UHGV virus genome: UHGV-0349585
Reading direction: 5' to 3' (one strand)
Length of the DNA stretch: 14,578 bases
Source of the DNA: a virus
Under the pieces are notes generated by a model, which worked only from the letters and a program-made list of their open reading frames with translations, was not told the origin of the DNA and made no database searches. This document shows positions 1 to 6,203 of the stretch, piece after piece; position 1 is the stretch's first letter; each line of letters starts with the position of its first letter. The position numbers and the translations under genes were made by a program.

Positions 1-456
1 TCCAGGCTTTGGCTTTAGCCGCTTCGGTTCATCAGCTCTGATGCCAATCCACGTGGTGTAATTCCCTCGCCCGAAATGGTCATCACAGTATTTGGTGAAG
101 GGAACGAGTTTTAATCTGTCAGTGCAGAACGCGCCGCCGACGTATGGAGTGCCATATTTCTTTACCATATCGATAAATGGCTTCAGAACAGGCATTCGCG
201 TCTGAATATCCTTTGGTTCCCATACCGTATAACCATTTGGCTGTCCAAGCTCCGGGTTGATATCAACCTGCAATACGGTGAGCGGTATATCCCAGAACTT
301 CACAACTTCCCTGACAAACCGATATGTCATTGGATGTTCACAACCTGTATCCATGAAAACGTAATGCACGTCTTTACCTGCCCGTCGCTTTTGCTCCATT
401 AGCCAGAGCAAATATGCTGACGTCCTGCCACCGGAGAAACTAACGACATTTATCAT
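1..456 (-). CDS. NinC-position protein with PP-loop (PAPS-reductase-like) N-terminus; partial, C-terminus beyond window edge
   Basis: Minus-strand ATG at 456-454 overlaps ninB stop (ATGA); my own translation begins MINVVSFSGGRTSAYLL, containing an SGGxxS PP-loop motif; open to position 1. Confidence 0.55.
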   Translation of the reverse strand, partial: MINVVSFSGGRTSAYLLWLMEQKRRAGKDVHYVFMDTGCEHPMTYRFVREVVKFWDIPLTVLQVDINPELGQPNGYTVWEPKDIQTRMPVLKPFIDMVKKYGTPYVGGAFCTDRLKLVPFTKYCDDHFGRGNYTTWIGIRADEPKRLKPKPG

Positions 457-893
457 GCAGCCCTGTCTCCCCATCTCGCTTTCCACTCCAGAGCCAGTCG
501 CGCTTCGTCTGACCACTTAACGCCACGCTCTGTACCGAATGCCTGTATAAGCTCTAATAGCTCCGCAAATTCGCCTACACGCATCCTGCTGGTTGACTGG
601 CCTATTACCACAAAGCCATTCCCGTCAAGGTTAGGAACAACGTCCTGCTGCTTTAATGCTGCGGTAAACACACACTTCCAGCTTTCTGCATCCAGCCAGC
701 GACCATGCCATTCAACCTGACGAGAGACGTCACCAAGGCAAGCCCAAAGCTTTCGATTCTGGTCTAAGCTGCGGTTGCGTTCCTGAATGGTTACTACGAT
801 TGGTTTGGTTGGGTCTGGAAGGATTTGCTGTACTGCGTGAATAGCGTTTTGCTGATGTGCTGGGGATCGAATTTCAAAGGTTAGTTTTTTCAT
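453..893 (-). CDS. ninB: NinB (Orf-family recombination mediator), 146 aa
   Basis: ORF-track protein MKKLTFEIRSPAHQQNAIHAVQQ... matches lambda NinB as I recall it, same length and same position upstream of ninC. Confidence 0.85.
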   Translation of the reverse strand: MKKLTFEIRSPAHQQNAIHAVQQILPDPTKPIVVTIQERNRSLDQNRKLWACLGDVSRQVEWHGRWLDAESWKCVFTAALKQQDVVPNLDGNGFVVIGQSTSRMRVGEFAELLELIQAFGTERGVKWSDEARLALEWKARWGDRAA

Positions 894-3950: not shown

Positions 3951-4160
<210 letters not shown>

Positions 4161-4248: not shown

Positions 4249-4965
<717 letters not shown>

Positions 4966-5264
4966 AGAGGATAGATGGAGTTTAATGGCCATGAGTATCA
5001 AGCGGTCAAAAAGAAGCTCATCTATTCATTGAAAGCATAAGGCCATCTGAGTATATCCGTAATGATCTGGATATTGTCTATAACATCAATGACCGGACGA
5101 TAGATATCGGTGAGCAGCGTCCTGTATGGCAGGGTGAGGCAGGTGAAAAAACGTCCTGCCATCAACAAGAATCAAGTGCATCCGCTCTCTGGACAGATGG
5201 AAAATTTATTGGATGCAAAAAGATATGAAATAACACCTGTATAGCACGGAGCTTTCTCTGACCG

Positions 5265-5660
5265 ATGCACTTGAAGTTGTTAGGGCTGACCCAGCCTGCT
5301 GTTTCTTTAGAGCTTGCCGAGCGATACATCAACGCAACTGAGCCGAAGCCTAGCGACAGCAGCATTACTGCATATAAAAGCCGCATGGAAAGTGCAATCA
5401 AAAAGTTTGTAGCTTTCCAGTCTGGTGAAGAAATCCCATACACTCCGATTGACAAAGAATCCAGTGAGGAAAAAGATTTGACTGGCGAACCAACAAAAGT
5501 CGAAGGCAAGGCTAATGCACTTCATACCTATGATCTTCCAGTAGTTCTTCGACCTGAATCAGGGGTTACAGTAACGATTAAAGGCATTCCTAACGATATC
5601 ACAAACGAAGAAGCCGAACGCATCTCTTCAATTCTGAAGGTTTACGTTCGGCCTCAATAA
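5265..5660 (+). CDS. Hypothetical protein (131 aa) in the slot occupied by rexA/rexB in lambda
   Basis: Longest ORF between cI and the timm-like terminator, co-oriented with cI; acidic and Lys-rich composition; weak RBS; two antisense ORFs overlap it, so coding status is uncertain. Confidence 0.35.
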   Translation: MHLKLLGLTQPAVSLELAERYINATEPKPSDSSITAYKSRMESAIKKFVAFQSGEEIPYTPIDKESSEEKDLTGEPTKVEGKANALHTYDLPVVLRPESGVTVTIKGIPNDITNEEAERISSILKVYVRPQ

Positions 5661-5833
5661 TGCAAAAGCATTCAGCACAATGTCCAACTCCCCAGTCCGA
5701 CATTGATGCTGTTTAACCAGAGCCTCCAAAAGGAGCCCTTGTTAAGGTACACAATATTTGCGATGTAACCTTAGCGCGTCTGGTACATTTTTTCAAGCGG
5801 TTGTAGGGCTGCCGCCAATATGAGAAAACACAG

Positions 5834-5956
5834 ATGTCTACATACAATTTGAATGACCAATTCGATCGAGAAGTTCATGTGAATGCCTATGAACGGATAA
5901 GGCATGGAAATCTTGAACATGTGTGTGAGCATTATCGCTCAAGGCCACACCGCTAA
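5834..5956 (+). CDS. Small hypothetical ORF (40 aa) immediately upstream of the timm-like terminator
   Basis: My own translation MSTYNLNDQFDREVHVNAYERIRHGNLEHVCEHYRSRPHR; weak GAGA-type RBS; ends 5 nt before the terminator stem. Confidence 0.2.
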   Translation: MSTYNLNDQFDREVHVNAYERIRHGNLEHVCEHYRSRPHR

Positions 5957-5961
5957 TCATC

Positions 5962-5990
5962 AACCCGGCCTCCATGCCGGGTTTTCTTTT
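5962..5990 (+). terminator. Intrinsic terminator ending the cI operon (timm-like)
   Basis: CCCGGC/GCCGGG stem (5964-5981) with 6-nt loop followed by TTTTCTTTT. Confidence 0.6.
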
Positions 5991-6140
5991 CCTCTCGCCC
6001 CAAAAAAAACGCATAACCAATTGTATTTATTTCAAAATTAATAGATACAACTCACTAAACATCGCAATTCAGATCTCTCGATCACCTTCCCAATCCACAC
6101 AACCCTGCAAAAAATAAATCTATATAAAAAACATACAGAT

Positions 6141-6203
6141 AACCATCTGCGGTGATAAATTATCTCTGGCGGTGTTGACATAAATACCACTGGCGGTGAT
6201 ACT
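6141..6203 (+). promoter_or_regulatory. OL3-OL2-OL1 operators and pL promoter
   Basis: 17-bp operators at 6141-6157, 6161-6177, 6185-6201; -35 TTGACA (6175-6180); -10 GATACT (6198-6203). Confidence 0.9.

Follow-up and report, generated by a model that had tools for sequence, protein, structure and literature searches.

What is a reading frame that stays open for 77 sense codons directly behind a phage repressor gene and contains no codon from which it could be started? This question is raised by the stretch of 14,578 nucleotides analysed here (the window; virus genome UHGV-0349585), which represents the early region of a lambdoid phage. On its minus strand lies cro (3951..4151), and on the plus strand follows a lambda-type cI repressor gene (4252..4965), a 237-aa ORF; HTH_3 and Peptidase_S24 domains were found on the identical gene of another contig, L025. 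The last ~65 nt of cI are common to the cI ends of VT2-Sakai and 933W. Cargo genes lie downstream of cI in operon position and are closed by an intrinsic terminator at 5962..5993 (plus strand; an 8-bp stem with 6 GC pairs, then a T-run), located upstream of oL/pL (around 6140-6200), with the N-side genes to the right.

A preliminary description of this DNA had noted the frame as start-less, and this is correct. Inspection of the sequence between TGA 4992-4994 and the TGA 5226-5228 which ends the frame (4995..5228, plus strand) yields 77 sense codons at 4995-5225 and no ATG, GTG or TTG among them. The closest real start, ATG 4975, leads only into a 21-aa ORF which ends with TAA 5038-5040. Start codons make up 5.4% of the non-stop triplets, which gives a probability of ~0.014 per frame for a run of 77 codons without any. 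However, of 94 stretches in the window that are open over 60 codons or more, three have no start codon, that is two further ones besides 4995-5228, and 18% of shuffled windows contain a run of 77 or more open codons without a start. The frame is therefore statistically unremarkable and within chance, and the reality of the feature rests on homology and not on statistics. At 421-720 (plus strand) the window contains a start-less open stretch of 99 codons, too, which overlaps a NinB-like gene on the minus strand (453..893) and is probably the shadow frame of that gene.

A DUF3024 gene with three lesions

Two origins had been considered for the frame, a gene remnant or a recoded region. We are confident that the first is correct and that 4975-5310 (plus strand) is a dead copy of a DUF3024 gene (PF11225, phrog_3467, PADLOC PDC-S43), an ordinary pseudogene which is not recoded; this assignment is based on tblastn, DNA alignments, profiles and codon periodicity. 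The comparison with phages that the preliminary description had proposed was run as tblastn and found an intact homologue. As query we used a conceptual protein in which the 21-aa ORF from ATG 4975 was joined to the start-less frame, and the matches fell into two classes. Those of the Sakai class are 97% identical and cover only the middle segment. The second class covers the whole query with 71-75% identity and is annotated as 'DUF3024 domain-containing protein', and it is through these intact homologues that the remnant can be recognized as such.

In nucleotide alignments with the intact copies the end of cI, the Shine-Dalgarno sequence of the former gene (AAGAGGA, 4965..4971, plus strand), which is kept in intact homologues, and the ATG at 4975 are all conserved, and GGGTAA[A/G]GAGGATAGATGG is common to the window, Sakai, 933W and ST160. 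The ancestral frame then runs through three segments, 4975-5007, 5008-5148 and 5149-5310, with coordinates modulo 3 of 1, 0 and 2, respectively. Lesion 1 (5008..5012, plus strand) is a 1-nt deletion in an A-run, with the alignment gap after 5007; the run reads AAAAA in the window and AAAAAA in intact E. coli alleles, and the frame is shifted by -1. At lesion 2 (5146..5151, plus strand) a C has disappeared between 5148 and 5149, where GAAA-AAAC in the window aligns with GAAACAAAC, and the result is a second -1 shift. Lesion 3 (5231..5233, plus strand) is a TAA at the place where every intact homologue has TGG, and the residue concerned, Trp87, is invariant in 65 family members. Compared with every intact copy the window and Sakai show exactly two 1-nt gaps and the TGG-to-TAA change, all common to both. 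Due to the two deletions and the nonsense codon no full-length DUF3024 protein is possible. An uninterrupted ORF of ~113 codons for the whole domain is absent from the window copy, and because its ORF is broken by two 1-nt deletions and a TAA the locus is to be regarded as a DUF3024 pseudogene and not as a functional member of the family.

What is left of the original gene start is a residual ORF of 21 codons, MEFNGHEYQAVKKKLIYSLKA (4975..5040, plus strand), which has the original start codon and is ancestral in its first ~13 codons only. Ribosomes would probably produce nothing but this 21-aa peptide from the region, which probably still forms the 3' portion of the cI message from pRM/pRE, in the manner of rexAB in lambda. 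The start-less frame has no start codon because the true one, ATG 4975, is now in another frame. It is the middle ancestral segment extended by chance at both sides and does not hold together as the unit it was taken for: only at 5013-5148 does it follow the ancestral reading frame, and from 5149 on it is in a different one. Its codons 7-52 correspond approximately to DUF3024 residues ~14-58, while 5149-5225 constitute an out-of-frame tail.

The profile searches agree with this division. In the 77-residue frame the Pfam profile PF11225 matches residues 6-52 on profile positions 11-55 with 25.4 bits, and the PHROG profile phrog_3467 matches residues 5-52 on profile positions 12-59. A full-length family match is reached only after restoring the three frames: the restored protein scores 79.8 bits with PF11225 (cut-off 24.9) over profile positions 4-111 of 112, with 107 of the 112 positions matched, and 103 bits with PADLOC PDC-S43. 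In the restored frames most substitutions relative to the intact alleles affect third codon positions, and the codon-position phase switches exactly at the two deletions. Within 5149-5310, 22 of the 33 differences from 933W lie at coordinates with modulo 1, which are second codon positions in the start-less frame.

Six columns are invariant in 65 family sequences (M1, W76, Y79, W87, D106 and F111). In the window copy W87 is replaced by a stop and the near-invariant residues A2, Q41 and R82 are altered as well. The gene order of the phage subgroup is present, as the locus lies directly 3' of a cI-like repressor gene and has the conserved Shine-Dalgarno sequence. In the 3' end of the pseudogene a short GC hairpin with a T-rich tail (5283..5297, plus strand) resembles a weak terminator; Sakai has it too, and its stability is not above that of shuffled sequences. 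No Pfam match was obtained for the minus-strand ORFs 5022..5168 and 5162..5509 or for the 21-aa ORF. Inside the pseudogene position 5017 is the sole difference between the window and VT2-Sakai (C versus T); in the restored frame it changes Val15 to Ala, in a column which is invariant in close homologues.

Intact counterparts are found in phage 933W (ST933Wp24, NP_049484.1) and in the Salmonella phage ST160 (gp23), whose DUF3024 genes comprise 113 codons and start ~60 nt past the stop codon of the repressor gene. Like the window copy they occupy the slot after cI/c2, with the conserved cI 3' end, Shine-Dalgarno sequence and ATG, and they match the same families, PF11225, phrog_3467 and PDC-S43. 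Nucleotide identity to the window is ~82-85%, and protein identity amounts to 71-81% after frame restoration. However, both genes are intact while the window copy carries two frameshifts and a nonsense codon, and in 933W the cargo downstream consists of a RuvC-like gene and stk and not of orf22. The 933W record annotates the terminator after the stk operon as the end of the pM transcript. Intact homologues directly after cI are found in many Stx phages as well.

In lambda the same slot, from the cI stop to the terminator before oL/pL, is occupied by rexA-rexB, exclusion genes which are co-transcribed with cI and expressed in the lysogen. The cargo of the window has no sequence or family relationship to rexAB, and no ORF in 4966-5960 showed a Pfam or PADLOC match to Rex. 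The likeness is one of position, and by analogy the logic of lysogen-expressed accessory or exclusion genes may hold for the window slot, too. Because this slot is the position of rexAB in lambda and of stk in 933W, what the ancestral gene provided was probably an accessory function of the exclusion or defence type, expressed in the lysogen. The AF2 model of the DUF3024 family is a single compact alpha-beta5-alpha domain. A literature search found no paper mentioning DUF3024, and in the papers searched PDC-S43 appears only in a list of predicted systems, as a candidate defence system. Outside phages, members of the family are located near toxin-antitoxin genes, TIR-domain genes and IS elements.

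Distribution and history of the broken allele

In VT2-Sakai/Sp5 and related Stx1/Stx2 phages the ~500-bp gap from cI to orf22 is unannotated. By megablast, 4900-6080 of the window matches VT2-Sakai/Sp5 and some 40 further Stx1/Stx2 phages with ~99% identity; the match is divided in two, as the phage records contain an additional 328 bp. Over 4966-5310 the identity to VT2-Sakai/Sp5-type phages is 99.7%, and the three lesions are the same. The repressor genes differ, as Sakai has its own cI type and the window a lambda-type cI.

With at least 99% identity the broken allele is present in 233 of 5,426 complete E. coli genomes, and in the sampled rows the span of the record equals the span of the query, without indels. 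Intact alleles, located directly behind cI, were found in 158 complete E. coli genomes with 80-90% identity, and there the match is 2 nt longer. In IMG/VR all 17 contigs with a Sakai-type 5' end carry all three lesions, and the loci link the broken allele to at least three cI types. Two of them (L014 and L024) combine a lambda-type cI with a full-length orf22 and look like the parent arrangement of the window. The ancestral pair of genes in intact form, DUF3024 and behind it the 173-aa orf22, is seen in the locus L006. An intact Sakai-type allele was not found among 5.8 billion clusters, the closest intact protein being 81% identical to the reconstruction.

All diverged full-length homologues that were found are single ORFs of ~112-141 aa. 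Other short matches are fragments only, for example a broken 933W-type copy in two assemblies. In the 5.5-Mb E. coli assemblies GCA_046575805.1 and GCA_046575725.1 (loci L032 and L033, 3001-3341) the 933W-type DUF3024 gene is split into an 84-aa and a 29-aa part, and in one of them neighbours such as stk are fragmented too; the split is likely the result of homopolymer sequencing errors. The rare ORF calls P0016-P0018 are recombinant or further-mutated versions of the allele. P0017, an 84-aa call on a Logan contig, reads MEFNGHEYHAVKKKFIYSLNSIRPSEY... and has a 1-nt insertion ~30 nt past lesion 1, which restores the frame after a scrambled stretch of seven residues; either a compensating mutation or a read error could explain it.

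When the restored frame is compared with intact alleles, dN/dS amounts to 0.10-0.18; among the intact alleles it is 0.12-0.25, at a dS of 0.6-1.0. Therefore most of the divergence accrued under selection: for a long time the allele was a diverged functional gene, and its inactivation is recent relative to its divergence. Signs of relaxation are modest and consist of private replacements and of two substitutions in the stop codon; the reconstruction has six private replacements at otherwise invariant columns, versus 0-3 in intact members. That the broken allele is widespread and was kept through several recombination events counts against a dead copy. Loss of DUF3024 would carry no cost for the phage.

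Unlikely readings: RNA, truncated products and recoding

Apart from encoding a dead gene, the DNA could now act as a non-coding RNA with a regulatory function, either by providing the cI message with a long 3' UTR or by giving rise to an sRNA. We consider this unlikely, and it would be compatible with pseudogene status, too. The region lies inside the cI transcription unit, the hairpin with the T-rich tail at 5283-5297 and a stronger hairpin just downstream in Sakai could be read in its favour, and Hfq-bound sRNAs are known to originate from EHEC prophages (PMC12197685). However, there is no Rfam family match in 4966-5310, neither at the gathering threshold (whole window and Sakai locus) nor at E <= 1 (4900-6100), local folds are no more stable than shuffles, and the substitutions are distributed as in a protein-coding gene. 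Moreover, the stronger hairpin is deleted in the window, yet such phages were recovered in three further assemblies. In the literature on Sp5 sRNAs we located none in the cI-orf22 interval.

It is very unlikely that a truncated product is functional, be it a protein of ~84 aa made by a single -1 slip at CAAAAAG or a 53-aa ORF initiated at CTG (5067..5228). The 84-aa product, initiated at ATG 4975, would join the N-terminal half of DUF3024 to a novel tail of 26 residues. PGAP calls the 53-aa CDS (WP_434087148.1) in many O157 genomes, and the 84-aa product is exactly what the recombinant alleles of P0016 (12 member sequences) encode, in which the 5' end is intact and 933W-like. However, both truncated products end in 26 out-of-frame residues, and judged from the AF2 model they would lack the C-terminal helix of the domain and at least its last three strands. 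CTG 5067 has no Shine-Dalgarno sequence upstream, and the 53-aa call is a prediction, a 'hypothetical protein' for which no evidence is stated, and is missing from many annotations of the same sequence. In O157:H7 (locus L003) WP_434087148.1 spans 1668-1829, equivalent to 5067-5228 of the window, and is half in the ancestral frame and half out of frame. A more specific version, in which low-level -1 slippage at CAAAAAG (5007-5013) yields the 84-aa product and this has a partial or dominant-negative activity in Sakai-type lysogens, seems to us just as poorly credible.

The recoding suggested in the preliminary description could not be substantiated, as there are three independent lesions, no stimulatory structures, and intact homologues which are unshifted. 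To obtain the full-length DUF3024 protein, two programmed -1 frameshifts, at C_AAA_AAG (5007-5013) and at the A6 run (5146-5151), would have to be combined with readthrough of TAA 5231, and we regard this as extremely improbable. Both shifts are indeed -1, the A-rich runs in which they fall (CAAAAAG and GAAAAAAC) are potentially slippery, and a -1 slip at AAA_AAG would exactly restore ...AVKKEAHLF..., where the intact sequence is ...AVKKEVHQF.... The low dN/dS of the restored frame fits recent inactivation, but is equally expected of a recoded gene that is still translated. However, three independent events are needed, and the TAA to be read through stands at an invariant Trp and is two substitutions away from TGG. 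Neither slip site is a canonical X_XXY_YYZ heptamer in full: site 1, C_AAA_AAG, is canonical in its A-site half only, and site 2, the A6 run, allows only P-site slippage. The 60 nt downstream of the two sites fold worse than shuffles (z +1.19 and +0.54), and no AGGAGG-like sequence, as a Shine-Dalgarno-like stimulator, is found 8-14 nt upstream of either. Conservation of the frameshift does not extend beyond one near-clonal allele, as the intact homologues are all unshifted, and the rare variants P0016-P0018 carry other indel states.

Frameshift sites of the dnaX type combine A_AAA_AAG with a Shine-Dalgarno sequence and a hairpin as stimulators of the -1 shift. Lesion 1 resembles them in that it leaves CAAAAAG in the incoming frame, where a -1 slip would restore the ancestral frame. 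It differs from them in having C instead of A as first base and in being without an upstream Shine-Dalgarno-like element and a downstream hairpin; furthermore, the frameshift of the window is not conserved in homologues and two more lesions follow.

That homopolymer sequencing or assembly errors, or a chance ORF in spacer DNA, account for the locus is practically inconceivable: both indels touch A-runs and start-less frames of this length occur in 18% of shuffles, but 44 phage records, 233 complete genomes and 17 IMG/VR contigs, dating from 1999 on and produced by various technologies, show identical lesions, the TAA differs from TGG by two substitutions and not by an indel, and the family matches are highly significant. 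Sequencing error is thus excluded by population data, with the same three lesions across E. coli genomes, IMG/VR and Stx phages, and a plain intergenic spacer is rejected due to the significant PF11225, phrog_3467 and PDC-S43 matches.

The 328-bp deletion and the cargo of the slot

The DUF3024 pseudogene is followed in the window by a second damaged gene. Alignment with VT2-Sakai and relatives places the junction of a 328-bp deletion at 5310..5311, with a microhomology of 1-2 nt. The deletion takes out the DUF3024 stop codon, the hairpin GGTCGCAGAGGTGCGGCC with its T-run, the ribosome binding site of orf22 and orf22 codons 1-57; in Sakai the stop codon and the hairpin with T-run are still there and orf22 has its full 173 aa. 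The result of the deletion is a fusion ORF of 131 aa (5265..5660, plus strand), in which orf22 residues 58-173 follow 15 codons that stem from the pseudogene 3' end but are out of its frame; the orf22 part matches phrog_2602 (function unknown) on profile positions 58-173 of 173. The fusion ORF has no Shine-Dalgarno sequence upstream, and its ATG lies out of frame inside the pseudogene 3' end. For orf22 itself phrog_2602 is the only match, as searches against Pfam, NCBIfam, PADLOC and PDB gave none.

The fusion ORF and the start-less frame are in the same reading frame (coordinate modulo 3 of 0), and the two stops reported between them are there (TGA 5226-5228 and TGA 5259-5261). However, the connection which this seemed to imply does not exist: the ORF is the 3' two-thirds of orf22, fused via the deletion, and that both use one frame is a coincidence.

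Searched for as an exact DNA pattern, the junction did not turn up in GTDB species genomes, IMG/VR or JGI metagenomes, nor in any of the phage or complete E. coli matches listed. Only an exact-protein look-up returned the fusion protein, on four contigs from two ENA metagenome assemblies (ERZ27281561 and ERZ27254723) and one SRA run (Logan SRR7351967). The 328-bp deletion is therefore real but rare among the sequences searched; sequence and junction are identical in the three contigs that were compared (L025-L027). One of these, L027 (ENA ERZ27254723 k141_269136), is 1.2 kb long, corresponds to 4882-6080 of the window and ends almost at the boundaries of the Sakai-like module (~4900-6080), which suggests that the module is flanked by sequence common to other phages of that sample. 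The conserved 3' end of cI and the region before oL appear to be recombination linkers.

Towards the right end of the module an ORF of 40 codons (5834-5956; MSTYNLNDQFDREVHVNAYERIRHGNLEHVCEHYRSRPHR) ends just before the terminator; it is 100% conserved in Sakai-type phages and has no Pfam match. Over the terminator, at 5865-5994, the only Rfam matches are two below threshold (GadY, E=0.32, and Hrs1, E=0.85), probably due to the terminator hairpin. Past the terminator, at ~6005-6015, an A-run is two bases longer than that of VT2-Sakai; substitutions follow up to ~6080, where the lambda-type oL region takes over from the Sakai-like sequence.

The assumption that the cargo of the rex slot has been remodelled therefore proved right: instead of rexAB the slot contains the two-gene cargo of the Sakai type, and both genes are now damaged. 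The value of this finding lies mainly in annotation, and it does not challenge current understanding. In VT2-Sakai/Sp5-type Stx phages the ~350 bp after cI, which are either left blank or assigned to a 53-aa 'hypothetical protein', should read DUF3024 pseudogene, and the 131-aa ORF of the window should be flagged as a 5'-truncated orf22. Beyond this, there are matched phage lineages which carry an intact (933W-type) or a dead (Sakai-type) copy of a candidate defence gene in the repressor operon, and this contrast is a convenient start for testing the role of DUF3024/PDC-S43.
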